DNA of 8,103 bases from a virus (taxonomy: Duplodnaviria > Heunggongvirae > Uroviricota > Caudoviricetes). Shown piece after piece: positions 1 through 6,150 of this stretch (position 1 is the stretch's first letter; every line of letters begins with the position of its first letter). The DNA lies in the IMG/VR virus record IMGVR_UViG_2695420792_000011, positions 1-8,103 of that record; one strand, written 5' to 3'. A model generated the notes under the pieces. That model saw nothing but the letters and a program-made list of their open reading frames with translations, did not search any database and was not told the DNA's origin. A program made the position numbers and the translations under genes.

Positions 1-351
1 CCGTTCGCCGGTTGCCCCGACAGGGCCGGTGTCACCGCGCTCTCCCTTATCACCCTTCGGCCCCTGAGGACCCGCGGGCCCCTGCTCCCCCTTTGGCCCG
101 GGAGGTCCCACCACGGTGGGGATTCGGTTTACGGCGTCTTCCGCCGCTATCCTGCTTTGTTCCGCTGACTGTGCGCTTTCTGCTGACTCCCGGGCTTTTT
201 CTGCTGCGGTCGTTGCATCCCTGGCTGCATTACCGGCTGCACTTTCTGCCGTCTTTTTTGACAACTCGGCATCTGCTGCACTTTGTAATGACTCACTGGC
301 TTTTTGAGCGGCCGCAGAGGCCGAGGACGAGGACGCCTCCTCTGAGGGCAT
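1..351 (-). CDS. Partial CDS (5' part, continues past window start): phage side tail-fibre-like protein with Ala/Ser/Glu-rich region and collagen-like Gly-X-Y repeats; possibly an N-terminally truncated remnant
   Basis: Manual minus-strand translation from ATG at 351-349 (in-frame TAA immediately upstream at 354-352) gives MPSEEASSSSASAAAQKASESLQSAADAELSKKTAESAAGNAARDATTAAEKARESAESAQSAEQSRIAAEDAVNRIPTVVGPPGPKGEQGPAGPQGPKGDKGERGDTGPVGATGER with no stop before position 1. It is absent from the ORF track because it has no stop in the window. The 12 consecutive G-X-Y triplets and the A/S/E-rich stretch match the composition of enterobacterial Stf-type tail fibres. No convincing SD precedes the ATG. 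Confidence 0.6.
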   Translation of the reverse strand, partial: MPSEEASSSSASAAAQKASESLQSAADAELSKKTAESAAGNAARDATTAAEKARESAESAQSAEQSRIAAEDAVNRIPTVVGPPGPKGEQGPAGPQGPKGDKGERGDTGPVGATGER

Positions 352-713
352 TTATGGAGCCGCGACAAAGTGTGGTGCCGTAACTGGCTAAGTGCTCTCA
401 GCGTTGTGGTAATCCGCGAAATGGCGCGGCGGTAAGTATGGCGGGGTTACTCTTTCCCCGTTGAGGACACCGGATTGTCAGGTTGACCATACGCCTGAGT
501 GACAACCCCACCACAACAGCCACTGCTTTGGCGGTACCAGTTTGTACACTTGCTTCCGGCTGGTACCGCTCTTTTTACAAAACAGAGAAGAGCATCACCG
601 GACGACGGGCTCATAACCCAATCCACCCGGGCGGCTGCCACCGCAGGTGTTCTTCTCTGTTTTGTGGAGAAACCAACCGACCTTGCAGGGTCGATATGAT
701 GAGGAGCAGCAAA

Positions 714-1076
714 ATGGCTAGCGAACGCAGTACTGATGTGCAGGCATTTATCGGGGAGCTGGACGGCGGCGTATTTGAAACCAAAATCGGCGCAGTTCTC
801 AGTGAAGTCGCTTCCGGTGTGATGAACACGAAAACCAAAGGTAAGGTCTCGCTCAACCTGGAAATCGAACCGTTTGATGAGAACCGTGTGAAAATCAAAC
901 ACAAACTCTCATATGTTCGCCCGACTAACCGCGGGAAAATTTCCGAAGAAGACACCACCGAAACGCCGATGTATGTCAATCGCGGTGGTCGCCTGACTAT
1001 TCTGCAGGAAGACCAGGGACAATTACTGACTCTTGCCGGTGAACCTGACGGAAAACTCCGCGCAGCAGGTCATTAA
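714..1076 (+). CDS. yfdP: YfdP-like prophage protein (120 aa), unknown function
   Basis: ATG at 714 preceded by GAGGAG (700-705); product MASERSTDVQAFIGELDGGVFETKIGAV...GKLRAAGH. The track ORF 483..1076 is the same frame with an implausible N-terminal extension. Length and sequence match my recollection of CPS-53 YfdP. Confidence 0.7.
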   Translation: MASERSTDVQAFIGELDGGVFETKIGAVLSEVASGVMNTKTKGKVSLNLEIEPFDENRVKIKHKLSYVRPTNRGKISEEDTTETPMYVNRGGRLTILQEDQGQLLTLAGEPDGKLRAAGH

Positions 1077-1141
1077 TATCGTTCTTAATTAACTGATTAT
1101 TTATCTCATCACTGAATATCTTTATATAGTGAGGACTTATT

Positions 1142-1966
1142 ATGTCTCAGAACTTAGACGCAACCGCAATTAATCAAATCCATGCCCTTATTTCTGCTCA
1201 GGGTGTTAATGAAATTATCAGTAAGATTGGTGCCGATGCTGTGGCATTGCCTGAGAATTTCCGCATTCATGATCTGGAAAAATTTAATTTAAATCGCTTC
1301 CGTTTCCGTGGTGCGCTTTCCACTGCCAGCATCGATGACTTTACCCGTTATTCTAAAGATCTTGCAGATGAAGGCACCCGCTGCTTTATCGATGCCGATA
1401 ATATGCGAGCCGTCAGTGTGCTTAACCTGGGTACTATTGATGAACCAGGTCACGCAGATAACACCGCCACCCTCAAACTGAAAAAGACAGCACCGTTTTC
1501 TGCTCTGTTGTCTGTTAATGGCGAGCGTAACTCCCAGAAGTCACTGGCAGAATGGATTGAAGACTGGGCCGACTACCTTGTGGGCTTTGATGCTAATGGT
1601 GACACCATTCAGGCAACCAAAGCAGCCGCGGCAGTCCGTAAAATCACAATTGAAGCAAACCAGACCGCTGATTTTGAAGACAATGACTTCAGCGGCAAAC
1701 GCTCCCTGATGGAGTCTGTCGAAGCGAAGACCAAAGACATTATGCCAGTGGCATTTGAATTTAAATGCGTTCCGTTTGAAGGCCTGAAAGAACGTCCGTT
1801 TAAATTACGCCTCAGCATTATCACTGGCGATCGTCCTGTACTGGTTCTGCGCATTATTCAGCTGGAAGCGATGCAGGAAGAAATGGCTAACGAATTTCGT
1901 GATCTGCTTGTTGAGAAATTCAAAGACAGCAAAGTAGAAACCTTTATTGGTACTTTCACCGCCTGA
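1142..1966 (+). CDS. yfdQ: YfdQ-like DUF2303 family prophage protein (274 aa)
   Basis: ATG 1142 with GAGGA 6 nt upstream; long ORF with good codon usage; N-terminus [30 protein letters not shown] recognised as YfdQ (recollection). Confidence 0.85.
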
Positions 1967-1978
1967 TTTCATTACTGC

Positions 1979-2000
1979 AAATGCCCCTGCGGGGGCATTT
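1979..2000 (+). terminator. Hairpin aaatgcccc-tgcg-ggggcattt (9-bp stem, 4-nt loop) after yfdQ; possible intrinsic terminator or attenuator
   Basis: Perfect inverted repeat 1979-1987/1992-2000 lying 13 nt after the yfdQ stop. The trailing T-tract is only the ttt inside the stem, so termination efficiency is uncertain. Confidence 0.4.
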
Positions 2001-2094
2001 ATGGAAACGTAATTAACTCAATAATCACCGGATGGTGAGAGCTTCCTTTTAGCAGAATTCAGCGCGGTGCAGCGCATATAAAGTGGAGACCGAA

Positions 2095-2631
2095 ATGTCA
2101 TTTATTAAAACTTTTTCCGGGAAGCATTTTTATTATGACAAGATAAATAAAGACGACATCGTGATTAACGATATCGCAGTTTCCCTTTCAAATATCTGTC
2201 GCTTTGCAGGACATCTTTCACACTTCTACAGCGTCGCCCAGCATGCGGTGCTTTGCAGCCAGCTGGTACCGCAGGAATTTGCTTTTGAAGCGTTAATGCA
2301 TGATGCAACAGAAGCATATTGCCAGGACATCCCCGCTCCACTGAAACGCCTTCTTCCTGACTATAAACGGATGGAAGAAAAAATAGATGCCGTAATCCGT
2401 GAGAAATACGGGTTACCCCCGGTTATGAGCACGCCTGTGAAATATGCCGATCTCATCATGCTGGCAACCGAACGCCGCGATCTCGGGCTTGATGATGGCT
2501 CTTTCTGGCCTGTACTGGAAGGCATCCCGGCAACAGAGATGTTCAACGTGATTCCACTGGCACCGGGCCATGCCTACGGGATGTTTATGGAACGTTTTAA
2601 CGAGTTATCGGAGTTACGCAAATGCGCATGA
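2095..2631 (+). CDS. yfdR: YfdR-like HD-domain phosphohydrolase (5'-deoxynucleotidase family), 178 aa
   Basis: ATG 2095 (MSFIKTFSGKHFYYD...) with GGAG 7 nt upstream; the track start at 2083 is a GTG with no SD. HD motif visible in FEALMHDATEAY. Stop TGA 2629-2631 overlaps the next gene. Confidence 0.85.
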   Translation: MSFIKTFSGKHFYYDKINKDDIVINDIAVSLSNICRFAGHLSHFYSVAQHAVLCSQLVPQEFAFEALMHDATEAYCQDIPAPLKRLLPDYKRMEEKIDAVIREKYGLPPVMSTPVKYADLIMLATERRDLGLDDGSFWPVLEGIPATEMFNVIPLAPGHAYGMFMERFNELSELRKCA

Positions 2632-2984
2632 ATGTTTTCGAAATGGAAGGGTTTCTTCGCGGGAAATGTGTACCGCGAGATCTGAAAGTGAACGAAACAA
2701 ATGCTGAGTACCTGGTACGTAAATTCGATGCGCTTGAAGCTAAATGTGCGGCACTGGAAAACAAAATAATACCAGTGTCAGCTGAACTGCCACCAGCAAA
2801 TGAAAGTGTTCTGTTATTTGATGCTAACGGAGAAGGCTGGCTAATTGGCTGGCGTTCTCTCTGGTACACCTGGGGACAAAAAGAAACCGGAGAATGGCAG
2901 TGGACATTTCAGGTCGGGGACCTTGAAAACGTCAATATCACTCACTGGGCAGTAATGCCGAAAGCACCGGAGAATAAGAAATGA
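2622..2984 (+). CDS. yfdS: YfdS-like DUF551 protein (120 aa)
   Basis: ATG 2622; overlaps the yfdR stop; C-terminal motif ...ITHWAVMPKAPE is typical of DUF551 (W...THWMPLP-like). Confidence 0.8.
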   Translation: MRMNVFEMEGFLRGKCVPRDLKVNETNAEYLVRKFDALEAKCAALENKIIPVSAELPPANESVLLFDANGEGWLIGWRSLWYTWGQKETGEWQWTFQVGDLENVNITHWAVMPKAPENKK

Positions 2985-3184
2985 GCGTGATAAAAACTCA
3001 TACAGGAATTGTTATCACCCGAGACGGTCCGCAGGTAAAAAAACTGCACCAGACAAAGCGGATGTGGGTCGTCGGAAAAAACGAGTTTTACCACAAAGAA
3101 AACGGACGCCGCCACTTTGCAGAAAATACTCGCCGCCGACTGCTGATCGATACCATCAAGCCTATCGAGGTGAAGCATGTTTAA
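2981..3184 (+). CDS. Small hypothetical phage protein (67 aa), basic
   Basis: ATG 2981 overlaps the yfdS stop (ATGA); its stop TAA 3182-3184 overlaps the next ATG at 3177 (ATGTTTAAA). Coding-like composition. Confidence 0.6.
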   Translation: MSVIKTHTGIVITRDGPQVKKLHQTKRMWVVGKNEFYHKENGRRHFAENTRRRLLIDTIKPIEVKHV

Positions 3185-3415
3185 ACAGAACGAAAAATCT
3201 ATCGCTCAAATTGCTGAGTATATCCCGCGTGCGTGCCGGGGTATGCAGTTGCAGGAAGCCAAAGCACGCCTGGAGAAAAAATTGCGCTCTATATCGATGA
3301 CGGCTGTGATGCTGCCGTTCTTAACGCGGCGTTCGCGCCAGCTCTTAACAGTCATACGCGAGAGTCTTTTTTTTCGTGCATCGCTGCGCAGATCCGTAAA
3401 GGAGGCAACCAGTGA
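3177..3415 (+). pseudogene. Small phage gene whose reading frame appears to switch from frame 0 (start 3177) to frame 2 (stop 3413-3415); candidate frameshift at the A6 run 3276-3281
   Basis: The ATG at 3177 is translationally coupled to the upstream stop. The frame-2 stop TGA 3413-3415 overlaps the GTG start of the next gene (GTGA). Frame 2 has the better codon usage after about 3284 (IALYIDDGCDAAVLNAAFAPALNSHTRESFFSCIAAQIRKGGNQ), while frame 0 there uses rare ATA/AGA/CGG/TTA codons. Both frames are open across 3233-3415. Confidence 0.4.
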
Positions 3416-3810
3416 GCAAGATTGACTATCAGGCACTGCGTGAGGCGGCGGAACGTGCAATTCAAGCAATGGAACGCCTGTTAATGTTGCCAGCTGCTGA
3501 TGATTTGTTAAGTGAACAGGAACTTAAAGATTACGGTGTGGATATTGATGTGCTCAACGCCTTCAAATTTCTGACCGGACCAGAAACCGTGCTGGCGCTG
3601 CTGGATGAACTAGAAGCTAAAAACAAACGCATTACAGAACTGGAAGCGAGGGAAGTTCAATTACCGACTCGCTACGACCTTCGATATGGGCACCCAATAA
3701 ATGCTGATAAGCGACATGTCATGATACCTAAAGAAAATGGCAGTTGGCTTTGCCTGATTGACTTAGAACACGCACTACGCGTCGCTGGCATTCGCATCAA
3801 AGGAGAGTGA
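3412..3810 (+). CDS. Ead/Ea22-like phage early protein (132 aa), GTG start
   Basis: GTG 3412 preceded by AGGAGG (about 3400-3405); product MSKIDYQALREAAERAIQAMERL...ETVLALLDELEAKNKRITELEAR has the coiled-coil central segment typical of Ead/Ea22-like proteins. Family call is from recollection. Confidence 0.6.
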   Translation: MSKIDYQALREAAERAIQAMERLLMLPAADDLLSEQELKDYGVDIDVLNAFKFLTGPETVLALLDELEAKNKRITELEAREVQLPTRYDLRYGHPINADKRHVMIPKENGSWLCLIDLEHALRVAGIRIKGE

Positions 3811-3811
3811 T

Positions 3812-4012
3812 ATGGCAACTTTGACAAAAAAGGAACAGGCATGGTTGAGCGAATTACAGAACGTTCTTGATCGCTGCCCGTCACCGAAAAAAATTGGTTT
3901 TTACACCATTGGCGATAAAAGCATTTACCTGTATGACCTACGCCGCATGGATGAAATCATGGAGGCTCTTGATGATCGTTCGTCAATGGGATTGGTGTGT
4001 TGCTGTCCATGA
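3812..4012 (+). CDS. Small hypothetical phage protein (66 aa)
   Basis: ATG 3812 lies 1 nt after the upstream stop with GGAG just upstream; coding-like composition; the C-terminus ...GLVCCCP is unusual. Confidence 0.5.
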   Translation: MATLTKKEQAWLSELQNVLDRCPSPKKIGFYTIGDKSIYLYDLRRMDEIMEALDDRSSMGLVCCCP

Positions 4013-4076
4013 TATGAATGCCGGATTTGAAGAAAAGATTTTGTTCCCCTCGTCAGTTGAAAGCACTGCGGGTTAA
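3972..4076 (+). CDS. Candidate small overlapping ORF (34 aa) MIVRQWDWCVAVHDMNAGFEEKILFPSSVESTAG
   Basis: ATG 3972 with GGAGG at 3961-3965 (6-nt spacing); frame 0 is open to TAA 4074-4076 just before the SD of the next gene. Could instead be the tail of a frameshifted 3812 gene. Confidence 0.25.
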   Translation: MIVRQWDWCVAVHDMNAGFEEKILFPSSVESTAG

Positions 4077-4086
4077 GGAGTAACAC

Positions 4087-4665
4087 ATGACCACTATTAC
4101 CAAAGAACGTATTGAATTGTTCATTAAAAATCCGCTTGGAAACGGACTTACCCGTGGCGAACAAATGGAACTGGCACGAATTGCACTGGCATCACTGGCA
4201 GCAGTATCGGATGAACGAGCAGCCTATGAATTATTTATGGAGAAGCGTTTCGGGGAATCTGTAGATCGCCGCAGGGCGAAAAATGGCGATAGAGAATACA
4301 TGGCATGGGATATGGCGCTTGGCTGGATTATCTGGTGTCACCGCGCCGCCATGCTTCAGGCTGGAAACTTTCGGGAAAATAAGGATTCGTCAACCAATAA
4401 TTTTCGGGAAACCTCGGAAACGTCAACCAACTCTCCGGTAACTCCGGATAGTTGGATAAGCTGTAGTGAGCGAATGCCTGAGAAGAATCAGAACGTGCTC
4501 ATTTCGGTGAATTTCGATAGCTCTCTGGTTGAACCGCTAATATGCTCCGCACGCTATACCGGAAGCACTTTTCGGCGCGGAGATGCAACGATTAAGTCGG
4601 GTAATGGTATTGAGCAAGCAACTCACTGGATGCCGCTACCGGAACCGCCGCAGGAGGTGAAGTGA
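4087..4665 (+). CDS. DUF551-domain phage protein (192 aa) with N-terminal extension
   Basis: ATG 4087 with AGGAG at 4073-4077; C-terminal WISCSERMPEKNQNVLI...ATHWMPLPEPP is a DUF551-like signature. Paralogous to the YfdS C-terminus. Confidence 0.8.
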   Translation: MTTITKERIELFIKNPLGNGLTRGEQMELARIALASLAAVSDERAAYELFMEKRFGESVDRRRAKNGDREYMAWDMALGWIIWCHRAAMLQAGNFRENKDSSTNNFRETSETSTNSPVTPDSWISCSERMPEKNQNVLISVNFDSSLVEPLICSARYTGSTFRRGDATIKSGNGIEQATHWMPLPEPPQEVK

Positions 4666-5237
4666 TGAACAACTTAATGATCGACCTTGAGACGATGGGG
4701 AAAAATAAGGATGCGCCGATCGTTTCTATTGGCGCGGTGTTCTTCACTCCAGAAACCGGAGACATCGGACAAGAATTTTATGCGGTTGTCAGCCTGGACA
4801 GTGCTATGAAGCAAGGAGCTACACCTGACGGCGATACCATCCTGTGGTGGTTGAAACAAAGCCCTGAAGCGCGAGCTGCAATCTGTATTGATGATACTTT
4901 GTCGATCAGCGATGCTCTCTCAGAACTAAACCATTTCATTAACCGGCACGCAGACAATACGAAATATTTAAAAGTCTGGGGTAACGGGGCCACCTTCGAC
5001 AACGTAATTTTACGTGGAGCTTATGAGCGAGCAGGACAAATCTGCCCGTGGGCGTACTGGAATGACCACGATGTACGCACGATCGTTACGCTTGGGCGTT
5101 CCATCGGATTCGACCCCAAAATGGACATGCCTTTCGATGGCGAACGGCACAACGCCCTGGCTGATGCCCGTCATCAGGCAAAATATGTTTCCGCTATCTG
5201 GCAGAAATTAATTCCTGCCACCAGCACAGAATTATGA
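4665..5237 (+). CDS. DnaQ-like DEDDh 3'-5' exonuclease (phage exonuclease, Rv2179c-like fold), 190 aa
   Basis: ATG 4665 overlaps the upstream TGA, with AGGAGG at 4653-4658. Motifs visible: MIDLETMG (Exo I D-x-E), GNGATFDNVIL (Exo II D), GERHNALADA (Exo III H-x4-D). Confidence 0.85.
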   Translation: MNNLMIDLETMGKNKDAPIVSIGAVFFTPETGDIGQEFYAVVSLDSAMKQGATPDGDTILWWLKQSPEARAAICIDDTLSISDALSELNHFINRHADNTKYLKVWGNGATFDNVILRGAYERAGQICPWAYWNDHDVRTIVTLGRSIGFDPKMDMPFDGERHNALADARHQAKYVSAIWQKLIPATSTEL

Positions 5238-5273
5238 TTTTCCCGGGTGCAGCCGGTTTTGATGGAGAAAATT

Positions 5274-5546
5274 ATGAACACCTTGTTTTTACTGATGGCT
5301 GAATTCAATACCCCAAACATTGAACTCTCAGCAGTTAGCCAAAAGTACTTTGGCATGAGTCCAGCCACGGCAGAAGCAAAAGCAAACGCTTGTAAGTTGC
5401 CCGTTCCAACATATCGCATCGGCACATCACAAAAAGCAAAACGTTGCATCAATATTCAGGATCTTGCGGAATACATAGACAAAAGGCGAGAAGAAGGGCG
5501 TGCTGAGTGGGAAAAAGTCAGAACGGAAAAACAAAAATATAACTAA
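5274..5546 (+). CDS. PrtN-family / excisionase-like small DNA-binding protein (90 aa)
   Basis: ATG 5274 with GGAGA 5 nt upstream (the track start 5247 lacks an SD). Product MNTLFLLMAEFNTPNIELSAVSQKYFG...LPVPTYRIGTSQKAKRCINIQDLAEYID resembles the PrtN/Xis-like family motif (LP.P.FR.G.SQK...DLA..ID), from recollection. Confidence 0.7.
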   Translation: MNTLFLLMAEFNTPNIELSAVSQKYFGMSPATAEAKANACKLPVPTYRIGTSQKAKRCINIQDLAEYIDKRREEGRAEWEKVRTEKQKYN

Positions 5547-5561
5547 ACTAAAACTATGGAT

Positions 5562-5588
5562 AACCCGTATATGTACGGGTTATTTTTC
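5562..5588. terminator. Hairpin aacccgta-tatg-tacgggtt followed by atttttc; intrinsic terminator between convergent genes
   Basis: 8-bp perfect stem 5562-5569/5574-5581, 4-nt loop, T-run 5583-5587 on the plus strand. The minus-strand stop codon (5580-5582) lies inside the right arm. Confidence 0.6.
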
Positions 5589-6128
5589 TTTATCACTATC
5601 TTTTCTTGATTTGAACAATCCACTAACAACGAAACCAACCAAACCAACAATACTAATTGTACTTGTACCTAGTAATGCAACGATCGCTTCAACTGGAGGC
5701 TTTCCTTCATGTGCAATAAGAAACGATGTAAACATTGCGACAACGAATAAGCACCAACACGACATAAACCAAACCGTGAATGAGGCCATTTTTGTCCGAA
5801 GCTCATTGTCTATTTCTTTACCAGTTGCGTCAGCTATCTTATCCCGTACTTGTGATTTGAGCATATCAAGCTGAGCTTGAAGACTGTCCATTCTGTTCTG
5901 CTGCATAAACTCATGCAATGCACCAGTATTAGAACCAAACTCTTCTGCCTCCAGAATAGCTTTATTTTCTGAAGAAGAATCATCGTCGCTCTCATGATTA
6001 GACGGCTCAAATGCAGATTTAAAAACCTGTTCTTGACTGTCAGTAGAGTTTAAGGATGCTTCAGAGCGACCATTTTCAACACCTGCGGCCGCTCCGATAA
6101 GTTTATAGATATCTGAATTGTGAGACAT
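5580..6128 (-). CDS. 182-aa membrane protein: acidic disordered N-terminus, predicted coiled-coil, two C-terminal TM helices; candidate toxin/effector (PanT-like) partner of the upstream DUF4065 protein
   Basis: ATG 6128-6126 lies 22 nt downstream of the stop of the 6151-6624 gene. Hydrophobic segments MASFTVWFMSCWCLFVVAMFTSFLIA and IVALLGTSTISIVGLVGFVVSGLF (about 5613-5786) are followed by a basic tail KSRKDSDKEK. AT-rich codon usage. Confidence 0.7.
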   Translation of the reverse strand: MSHNSDIYKLIGAAAGVENGRSEASLNSTDSQEQVFKSAFEPSNHESDDDSSSENKAILEAEEFGSNTGALHEFMQQNRMDSLQAQLDMLKSQVRDKIADATGKEIDNELRTKMASFTVWFMSCWCLFVVAMFTSFLIAHEGKPPVEAIVALLGTSTISIVGLVGFVVSGLFKSRKDSDKEK

Positions 6129-6150
6129 GTCATCCCTGAATATTACTTTT

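Follow-up and report, generated by a model that had tools for sequence, protein, structure and literature searches.

A CPS-53-type yfdP-yfdQ-yfdR-yfdS module in the probable early-left operon of a cryptic dusA prophage, preceded by a candidate cis-acting leader RNA

The closest experimentally described system is the yfdP-yfdQ-yfdR-yfdS-yfdT cluster of the CPS-53 (KpLE1) prophage in Escherichia coli K-12. YfdR binds domain I of DnaA through Phe46 and competes partially with DiaA and DnaB (Noguchi & Katayama 2016, PMC4776307). Multicopy supply of yfdQ and yfdR together with yfdS or yfdT lowers initiation at oriC, while yfdP is dispensable for this phenotype (PMC4776307); the earlier sequence-only reading of the present DNA had given the DnaA binding and the multicopy inhibition correctly. 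The replication phenotype is known from multicopy supply only; deletion of yfdQRST has no effect, and the authors themselves allowed for an overexpression artefact (PMC4776307). K-12 YfdR is cited in that paper as an HD-domain dNMP phosphohydrolase with a low affinity for nucleotides, and the homologues in Shigella phage SfV (orf32-orf28) were noted there as well (PMC4776307). The phage context of the cluster is treated in a separate report (PMC12315714).

The window analysed here is the whole 8,103-nt stretch of the IMG/VR virus record IMGVR_UViG_2695420792_000011. All four K-12 orthologues are present in full length at 714-2984, in the order and on the strand known from K-12, and they are collinear and ungapped with 98.5 to 100% protein identity, which confirmed the proposed likeness to CPS-53 together with the coordinates given for it. 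The first gene, yfdP (714-1076, + strand), encodes 120 aa with 99.2% identity to K-12 YfdP and a match to phrog_204. The yfdQ product (1142-1966, + strand; 274 aa, 98.5% identity) is a DUF2303 protein, matching Pfam PF10065 over profile positions 2-269 of 269 with 307.7 bits against a cut-off of 26.6 (E=8e-92). The reported DnaA binder (PMC4776307) is encoded by yfdR (2095-2631, + strand; 178 aa, 99.4% identity), for which an alternative GTG start lies at 2083; it is a putative HD-domain 5'-deoxynucleotidase with the HD motif at residues 69-70, a His upstream and a phrog_318 match of E=4e-110, while its score against Pfam YfbR-like (24.2 bits) is under the 25.9 cut-off and its NCBIfam score is far under the corresponding cut-off. 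In yfdS (2622-2984, + strand; 120 aa, weak DUF551 match), 117 of the 120 residues are identical to K-12 (100% over this part) and only the last three differ.

At the DNA level, the identity to CPS-53 is 97.5%, collinear over window positions 695-2972. The homology stops at 2972 within yfdS, where many records also cease to match, marking a mosaic breakpoint relative to K-12 and the SfV-type phages, and the synteny with K-12 diverges past this point. Of 5426 complete E. coli genomes, 2446 (almost half) contain the block, as do 46 phage records at 95-99% identity. By these comparisons, the segment 714-2984 is a near-identical copy of a known, already studied and common E. coli prophage module and thus an ordinary finding; being a defective copy here, the flagged cluster itself adds little.

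Comparison with intact phages indicates where this module belongs. The arm recurs in the functional phages mEp460, phiSTEC1575-Stx2k, 1720a-02, PhiR47_1 and SfV, with a cI-type repressor upstream and xis/int downstream, and in mEp460, SfV and the STEC409 Stx2 prophage the genes lie on one strand between these two landmarks, as in the accessory region of a lambdoid early-left (PL) operon. The early-left operon of mEp460 and phiSTEC1575-Stx2k (also of 1720a-02 and PhiR47_1) shares its mosaic with the window over the leader, yfdPQRS, the small ea-type genes, the DUF551 gene, the exonuclease and the PrtN-type excisionase; in the Stx2k and PhiR47_1 type, the likeness extends to PanT/PanA and to the attachment end at dusA, whereas the Ea22/DUF551 segment at 3417-4445 differs from the mEp460/Stx2k type. 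SfV carries a yfdP-Q-R-S block of 97% identity behind the same leader RNA, but there the block leads straight into the yfdT-like orf28, xis and int, and the exonuclease is absent. Common to the CPS-53 cluster and the window are yfdQ, yfdR and yfdS, reported as the smallest combination that inhibits initiation. It differs in its integration site (argW, against dusA for the window prophage), in its upstream region, where the yfdO/yfdP spacer carries SrsR boxes and no structured leader while the window has the leader and SrsR boxes at chance level only, and in its downstream region, which holds yfdT, ypdJ (an excisionase remnant) and torI in place of five small genes, a DUF551 protein, the exonuclease and a PrtN-type gene.

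According to this analysis, we consider it likely (probability about 0.8) that 714-2984 represents orthologous CPS-53/SfV-type genes forming the promoter-proximal accessory module of a lambdoid early-left (PL-type) operon in a cryptic dusA prophage. The module would be at home in lambdoid phages that have neither an N gene nor a Rec module, such as SfV, mEp460, ST64B/LLS and several Stx phages, and the host prophage would be a dusA-integrated mosaic of the mEp460 / phiSTEC1575-Stx2k type that became cryptic by a large internal deletion.

The sequence-only reading had also described a longer, translationally coupled operon continuing into an intact exonuclease. Its same-strand array does extend into the exonuclease, with overlaps from yfdR on (stop/start junctions of -10, -4, -8, -14, +1 and -1 nt), but gaps of 65 nt separate yfdP from yfdQ and of 128 nt yfdQ from yfdR, and the array is not fully intact because two small genes carry single-base frameshifts relative to their homologues in intact phages. 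After a small early gene at 2981-3184 (+ strand; 67 aa, phrog_1226), the next one (3177-3425, + strand) has a -1 frameshift in an A-run at about 3280 compared with the STEC409 and mEp460 homologues; its protein departs from them past residue 35, and the phrog_1344 match is confined to residues 1-36. An Ead/Ea22-like protein of 132 aa follows at 3412-3810 (+ strand; Pfam PF13935, E=9e-22). In the second frameshifted gene (3812-4012/4076, + strand), alignment with gene 027 of Salmonella phage VSe13 revealed an extra G at about 3990 (+1), which cuts the product to 66 aa from the 87 aa of the intact form. The DUF551 protein (4087-4665, + strand) has 192 aa and shares 57% identity with K-12 YfdT over the N-terminal 89 residues. 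The exonuclease itself (4665-5237, + strand; 190 aa, phrog_255) is intact as claimed: it is an Rv2179c-like DEDDh 3'-5' exonuclease matching Pfam PF16473 over 177 of 177 profile positions (E=1.3e-75), with all catalytic residues present, namely D7/E9 in DLET, D112 in FDN and H162/D167 in HNALAD.

The upstream end of the window accounts for the cryptic state. Positions 1-345 (- strand) hold a 5'-truncated tail-fibre gene with collagen-like Gly-X-Y repeats, which represents a 434-aa protein from residue 172 on; these positions are 100% identical in DNA to the interior of the strain D1 gene for the tail-fibre N-terminal domain, and the translations agree. The deletion junction lies at 343-345, where the homology blocks overlap by 3 nt, as the tail-fibre block matches to 345 and the yfdP-upstream block from 343. 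This junction fuses the truncated tail-fibre gene with the yfdP leader, and the tail, head, lysis, replication, cro and cI genes are missing between them. The two blocks were contiguous in none of the complete E. coli genomes, while the undeleted layout is present in STEC409 and mEp460. Phages of the mEp460/Stx2k type are complete, with cI, cro, replication, lysis and morphogenesis genes, whereas the window lacks the interval from the tail fibre to the yfdP leader and has the two frameshifts in addition. The comparison thus indicates that the prophage is cryptic through a large internal deletion that removed the repressor and the promoter region. No sigma-70-like promoter was found upstream of yfdP on the + strand within the window, and since the operon is left without repressor and PL region, the window copy is probably poorly expressed or silent.

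An intact phage would express the genes early, once induced or after infecting a cell, and their products would hold back or divert initiation and DNA metabolism of the host to the benefit of the phage. Since none of the window proteins falls below 98.5% identity to its K-12 counterpart, overexpression of window YfdQ, YfdR and YfdS is expected to give the same phenotype as in K-12; Phe46-dependent binding of YfdR to DnaA domain I and fewer origins per cell upon overexpression are predicted accordingly from this identity, and a dNMP phosphohydrolase activity of window YfdR is inferred from its 99.4% identity to K-12 YfdR. Against this reading stands the distribution of the genes. In a synteny survey of 71 species loci, yfdP lies directly upstream of yfdQ in 69 and yfdR is present in 58, and in 27 the exonuclease follows yfdQ at a distance of up to 4 kb. 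By contrast, yfdS and yfdT, of which one is needed for the phenotype, are rare partners (5/71 and 6/71) that are not conserved with yfdQ/yfdR beyond Escherichia/Shigella, and yfdP, the gene most tightly linked to yfdQ, is dispensable for it. The conserved unit across the 71 species is yfdP-yfdQ(-yfdR), often with a DEDDh exonuclease, and not yfdS/T. It is a useful correction that this evolutionary unit is not the yfdQRST set of the K-12 experiments, so that any physiological role drawn from the DnaA result is tentative.

The real job of the module could instead lie in phage DNA or nucleotide metabolism, with DnaA binding as a side effect of overexpression. A dNMP-releasing DEDDh exonuclease and the YfdR 5'-deoxynucleotidase would together alter the nucleotide pools or break down nucleic acids that belong to the host or are tied to defence, in keeping with the probable membership of YfdR in the HD 5'-deoxynucleotidase family, with the 27 of 71 loci that have the exonuclease 3' of yfdQ and with the absence of a replication phenotype on yfdQRST deletion (PMC4776307). 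SfV and K-12, however, keep yfdPQR without the exonuclease, and the window proteins matched none of the PADLOC defence models save a weak generic DEDDh one. We regard this explanation as less likely than not.

YfdP and YfdQ might also work as a pair that binds DNA or modulates recombination, a functional analogue of RdgC, and the inhibition of initiation would be one consequence. An RdgC-family gene replaces yfdP-yfdQ between the conserved leader RNA and yfdR in several viral contigs, and this exchangeability in one slot is a useful correction in itself, but positional replacement is weak evidence for a common function. The adjacency of yfdP and yfdQ in 69 of 71 loci would fit a joint unit, as would the invariant C-terminal tail of YfdP, predicted to be disordered as in a partner-binding segment. 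A YfdQ homologue, roughly 45% identical by eye, is deposited as PDB 9o7m ('YfdQ Protein'), whose 36 chains suggest a large oligomer; we found no paper mentioning the entry. On the other side, neither YfdP nor YfdQ gave an informative fold match in a fold library without 9o7m, with no similarity to RdgC or to any DNA-binding protein, and Casjens and co-workers argue against a role in recombination, since the cluster coexists with complete Rec modules (PMC12315714). An RdgC-like unit is improbable.

The suggestion that the window holds a more complete, ancestral module, of which K-12 keeps just a decayed exonuclease (ypdJ) at the matching position, can draw on five extra genes and an intact exonuclease, all missing from K-12, that lie in the window after yfdS and before the excisionase-like gene, yet it is hardly tenable and these comparisons already refute it: YpdJ consists of the N-terminal 46 residues of an excisionase of the SfV type (91% identical to residues 4-49 of the SfV protein), ypdJ DNA aligns with orf28-xis in phages SfII, SfIV and SfV, the window exonuclease has no similarity to YpdJ or the CPS-53 locus by blastp and tblastn, the functional phage SfV has its genes in the K-12 order yfdP-Q-R-S-T-xis, and the window copy is itself damaged by the deletion and both frameshifts. 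That ypdJ is an excisionase remnant and not an exonuclease remnant is a useful correction. Because K-12 retains the functional SfV order, the window is better read as a different mosaic, an alternative of the mEp460 / Stx2k-phage type with its recombination breakpoint at 2972.

The early-left accessory module is preceded by the one new thing at the locus, a structured leader RNA. A terminator-like hairpin comes first (531-576, + strand), with a perfect 10-bp stem (531-540/560-569) followed by UCUUUUU, and it is kept in other genera with stem covariation among the upstream sequences of 34 loci. A leader peptide starting from a Shine-Dalgarno sequence and AUG in its loop was rejected, as its reading frame does not persist among the loci and the insert is missing from the window variant. 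The conserved but unannotated leader (571-695, + strand) spans 125 nt and folds into a 22-bp closing stem around a three-way junction (fold z-score -4.7). Its apical hairpin reads GGGCUCAUAACCC, the same as the initiator-tRNA anticodon arm when aligned with metZ, and a further hairpin stands directly before the yfdP Shine-Dalgarno sequence. Covariation analysis (RNAalifold, pair counts) found pairing in 97.8% of cells and changes on both sides of 15 pairs, a level reached by 0 of 500 shuffles. Covariance-model matches occur at other loci, including SfV, with a single copy per locus, and about every second complete E. coli genome carries the leader. K-12 is among these, with a copy in e14 that falls within the gene annotated as 'ymfH'.

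Known classes did not accommodate this RNA. In Rfam 15, no family reached its gathering score in the window, and two matches in 300-1150 (E<=5) were at chance level. ARAGORN found no tRNA or tmRNA in the window and the likeness to tRNA-fMet is confined to the anticodon arm, so a tRNA gene was rejected, and a DNA-level palindrome is disfavoured because the frequent G-U pairs exist on the + strand only. The nearest analogues are the HK022 put antiterminator RNAs, cis-acting structured RNAs of the early-left transcript in an N-less lambdoid phage, as is proposed for the leader, and a put-like mechanism has been suggested for the related phage LLS (PMC12315714). The put RNAs are about 70 nt long with two adjacent stem-loops and occur in both early operons, PL and PR (PMC9378689), whereas the leader has about 125 nt, the 22-bp closing stem, a three-way junction and one copy per locus; no second copy was found in the searched portion of the PR-side region of mEp460. 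With this different architecture and no detectable homology, an HK022-type put RNA was rejected, and the leader is set apart from putL by description.

We tentatively propose, at somewhat less than even odds, that 571-695 belongs to an undescribed family of cis-acting RNAs in N-less lambdoid early-left transcripts whose apical hairpin copies the tRNA-fMet anticodon arm. It could act in read-through of the 531-576 hairpin, in RNase III-type processing or at the point where translation of the first gene after it begins. It could otherwise serve to decoy or sense factors with specificity for the initiator anticodon arm, for example the 30S P site with IF3, MetRS or VapC-type anticodon nucleases. 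If functional, it would provide a handle on early-left operon control in N-less phages and a case of initiator-tRNA anticodon-arm mimicry testable in K-12 (e14), mEp460 and SfV, and it may matter more than the yfd cluster itself.

At the other end of the array, a PrtN-family, excisionase-like gene (5247-5546, + strand; Pfam PF11112, E=4e-23) is syntenic with mEp460 gp25, annotated as an excisionase. A bidirectional terminator-like hairpin (5558-5585) separates it from a convergent toxin-antitoxin operon on the - strand (5580-6639), made up of a PanT-like gene (5580-6128) and a PanA-like gene with a Panacea/SocA domain (6151-6639; Pfam PF13274, E=6e-18, with an NCBIfam SocA match), a pair annotated as PanT/PanA in phage PhiR47_1. 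Its consensus sigma-70 promoter at 6809-6782 agrees at 12 of 12 consensus positions. The prophage right end is marked by the displaced 5' end of dusA (6911-7039, - strand), identified from the RefSeq annotation of the syntenic locus, and attR lies at about 6930-6937, where the matches to phage records stop.

The cluster comprises yfdP (714-1076), yfdQ (1142-1966), yfdR (2095-2631) and yfdS (2622-2984), all on the + strand, which carries the entire coding capacity between positions 714 and 5546. Their products are 99.2%, 98.5% and 99.4% identical to E. coli K-12 YfdP, YfdQ and YfdR, respectively, and 100% identical to YfdS over 117 of 120 residues, while at the DNA level positions 695-2972 match the K-12 cryptic prophage CPS-53 at 97.5% identity. 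Because these protein and DNA identities match, the cluster and the span 714-2984 proposed in the sequence-only reading are verified. Pfam and PHROGs agree in assigning YfdQ to DUF2303 and YfdR, as a probable member, to the HD-domain deoxynucleoside-5'-monophosphate phosphatases, and YfdS gives a weak DUF551 match; Ea22-like, DUF551, exonuclease and PrtN-family genes follow 3' of the cluster. The downstream DUF551 protein shows a strong family match with a YfdT-like N-terminal half, and the exonuclease (4665-5237, +) is a full-length Rv2179c-like DEDDh protein that retains its catalytic motifs. At a coverage of at least 80% and an identity of 95-99%, 2446 of the 5426 complete E. coli genomes contain the 714-2984 block, as do 46 phage records. 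The cluster is a known and very common prophage module residing in a decayed prophage, real but ordinary, and the structured leader RNA directly 5' of yfdP (571-695, +) is the sole element of this analysis that may be new.

Beyond position 2972, the CPS-53 match is limited to one 157-nt stretch inside yfdT (window 4179-4335, 81%), and the same breakpoint recurs in many other records. The sequence-only reading takes K-12 ypdJ for a decayed exonuclease, which is a factual error: YpdJ shares 91% identity with residues 4-49, the N-terminal part, of the SfV excisionase, ypdJ aligns at the DNA level with the orf28-xis region of phages SfII, SfIV and SfV, and neither YpdJ itself nor anything in the entire CPS-53 locus resembles the window exonuclease. 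Judged by these sequence matches, K-12 YpdJ is an excisionase remnant. The gene order of the functional phage SfV (cI, orf33, yfdP, yfdQ, yfdR, yfdS, yfdT, xis, int) is identical to that of CPS-53; therefore, K-12 and the window represent two mosaics with a common block up to 2972. Neither arose by decay of the other, and presenting the window copy as a more complete version of the module misframes their relationship.

To define the conserved unit, we compared 71 loci from 71 species collected through a YfdQ search, all from Enterobacterales except for one Hahella. yfdP lies directly upstream of yfdQ in 69 loci, the remaining two being truncated, and yfdR follows yfdQ in 58 of the 71. The exonuclease occurs within 4 kb of yfdQ in 27/71 loci, and yfdS and a YfdT/DUF551 protein accompany yfdQ in only 5/71 and 6/71, respectively. 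The evolutionary module is therefore yfdP-yfdQ(-yfdR), often with the exonuclease, and not yfdQRST. Casjens and colleagues (PMC12315714) list yfdP, yfdQ and yfdR as common early-left genes of lambdoid phages, leave their function unassigned and find them not limited to phages that lack a Rec module.

The connection to replication initiation comes from Noguchi and Katayama (PMC4776307), who found that yfdQRST suppresses hda-185 in multicopy; the minimal set was yfdQ and yfdR with either yfdS or yfdT, yfdP being dispensable, and initiation was inhibited on multicopy supply. Deletion gave no phenotype, and the authors allow for an overexpression artefact. The statement in the sequence-only reading that YfdR was reported to bind DnaA and the overexpressed cluster to inhibit initiation agrees with this paper, and the minimal inhibitory set is present in the window at an identity of at least 98.5%. 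The most likely role builds on the K-12 proteins, for which it was shown that YfdR binds DnaA domain I and that overproduced YfdR, together with YfdQ and YfdS or YfdT, lowers oriC initiation; in an intact phage, the early-left genes would then target host initiation and DNA or nucleotide metabolism soon after induction or infection. That the enzymatic activities are the true function and DnaA binding is incidental is a less likely but plausible alternative.

YfdP and YfdQ were modeled by AlphaFold2 (pLDDT 79 and 70, respectively), and neither model had meaningful structural neighbors in a fold library that lacked PDB 9o7m. This entry, "YfdQ Protein", is a solved YfdQ homologue with an identity of about 45% as judged by eye, and its 36 chains suggest a large oligomer; a literature search found no publication on it. 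The YfdP model packs a long helix against a three-stranded sheet and ends in an invariant C-terminal tail modeled at low confidence. Its most conserved stretch, residues 78-104 (EEDTTETPMYVN..GG.L....QEDQGQL), overlaps residues 90-106, where the pLDDT falls below 50, which fits a segment that might fold only on a partner, possibly YfdQ. PADLOC defence models gave no match beyond a weak, generic DEDDh hit. In nine IMG/VR contigs (L084, L089, L109, L111, L118, L123, L125, L126 and L132), an RdgC-family gene (PF04381) directly follows the leader RNA in place of yfdP-yfdQ; yfdR lies further downstream in most of them and was not detected in L111 or L132. By analogy, this replacement is a weak hint that yfdP-yfdQ may have a similar DNA-related role.

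The best matches of the window are lambdoid prophages at dusA, adjoining yjbM and zur, such as the STEC409 Stx2 prophage, and the sequenced phages phiSTEC1575-Stx2k, 1720a-02, PhiR47_1 and mEp460 match as well. In these genomes, the cluster follows the cI-type repressor and precedes the excisionase, which places it in the early-left (PL-type) operon. The window begins with a 5'-truncated tail-fibre gene with collagen repeats (1-345, −; from residue 172 to the end of a 434-aa protein), fused at 343-345 to the DNA preceding yfdP; the resulting deletion junction was found in none of the 5426 complete E. coli genomes and supplies an in-frame ATG (351-349) to the truncated ORF. Since these two points are separated in intact relatives by the tail, head, lysis, replication, cro and cI genes, the repressor and the PL region have been lost through a large deletion. 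No sigma-70-like promoter was predicted on the + strand upstream of yfdP in the window, and the cryptic copy is probably expressed weakly at best. Two small early genes on the + strand are also frameshifted: 3177-3425 by a single-base deletion in an A-run (−1, shifted after codon 35) relative to its STEC409 and mEp460 homologues, and 3812-4076 by an extra G near 3990 (+1), which, compared with gene 027 of Salmonella phage VSe13, shortens the product from 87 to 66 aa. Both single-base indels could be sequencing errors, the former either true decay or a homopolymer error. This copy of the prophage is defective. At its right end, a convergent gene pair (5580-6639, −) encodes a PanT-like toxin (182 aa, no confident family match) and a PanA-like Panacea/SocA-domain antitoxin behind a perfect consensus promoter (TTGACA-16-TATAAT, 6809-6782). 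The displaced original dusA 5' end (6911-7039, −) marks the right attachment site; the prophage ends near 6930, phage-record matches stop at 6930-6937, and yjbM is also contained in the right part of the window.

The leader RNA has never been annotated and has no match in Rfam 15. Between the junction and yfdP lie 371 nt whose predicted folding is much better than that of shuffled controls (z = -4.7). Prophages from other genera, with YfdP proteins only about 60% identical, share positions 562-679 at 80-94% identity. In the consensus from 31 aligned loci, the closing stem spans 22 bp; an inner hairpin whose loop hardly varies, one hairpin of variable length and an additional hairpin directly 5' of the yfdP Shine-Dalgarno sequence complete the structure. 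In the proposed structure, 97.8% of cells form standard pairs and 15 pairs are changed on both sides, versus 43-58% and 2-8 in slid-partner controls, and none of 500 shuffles reached the observed values. These counts support the structure, and frequent G-U pairs indicate that the + strand is the one that folds. Searches with a covariance model gave precisely one copy at each locus, among them mEp460, SfV and, at greater distance, prophages of Yersinia, Serratia, Rahnella and Proteus, and none in K-12 CPS-53, whose homology begins at 695, the exact 3' end of the element. The initiator tRNA-fMet anticodon arm is reproduced exactly by the apical hairpin GGGCUCAUAACCC, with three G-C pairs and the loop CUCAUAA, of which CUCAU is kept in loop variants; ARAGORN found no tRNA. 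This hairpin is a specific and testable feature. In seven distant leaders from the latter four genera (L072, L040, L049, L070, L062, L032 and L063), the long closing stem and the GUGUGGAGA segment are retained, and the inner core differs and has no tRNA-like hairpin; stem and core thus appear to be separable modules.

Just 5' of the leader RNA lies a terminator-like hairpin (531-576, +), a perfect 10-bp stem followed by UCUUUUU that is conserved with covariation, and its U-run is predicted to pair as the base of the closing stem; upstream, a variable hairpin precedes a conserved CACCACAAC motif (~470-515). For this phage group, which has no N homologue, a put-like RNA mechanism has been suggested (PMC12315714), whereas the leader RNA differs from HK022-type put RNA in size, architecture and copy number. 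We consider control of the early-left operon at the transcript level, through read-through, processing or translation start, its most likely function. The element is not bound to yfdP, since in viral contigs it also stands directly 5' of yfdR, rdgC-like or other genes. In the K-12 lineage, e14 carries a copy (86.6 bits; comparison locus L200, 3501-3624) directly upstream of xisE, with its tRNA-like loop altered to UUAAUAA. Because this copy lies inside the annotated hypothetical gene ymfH (b1142; 5070-5381 of the e14 locus L201), "ymfH" may represent an RNA element and not code for a protein.
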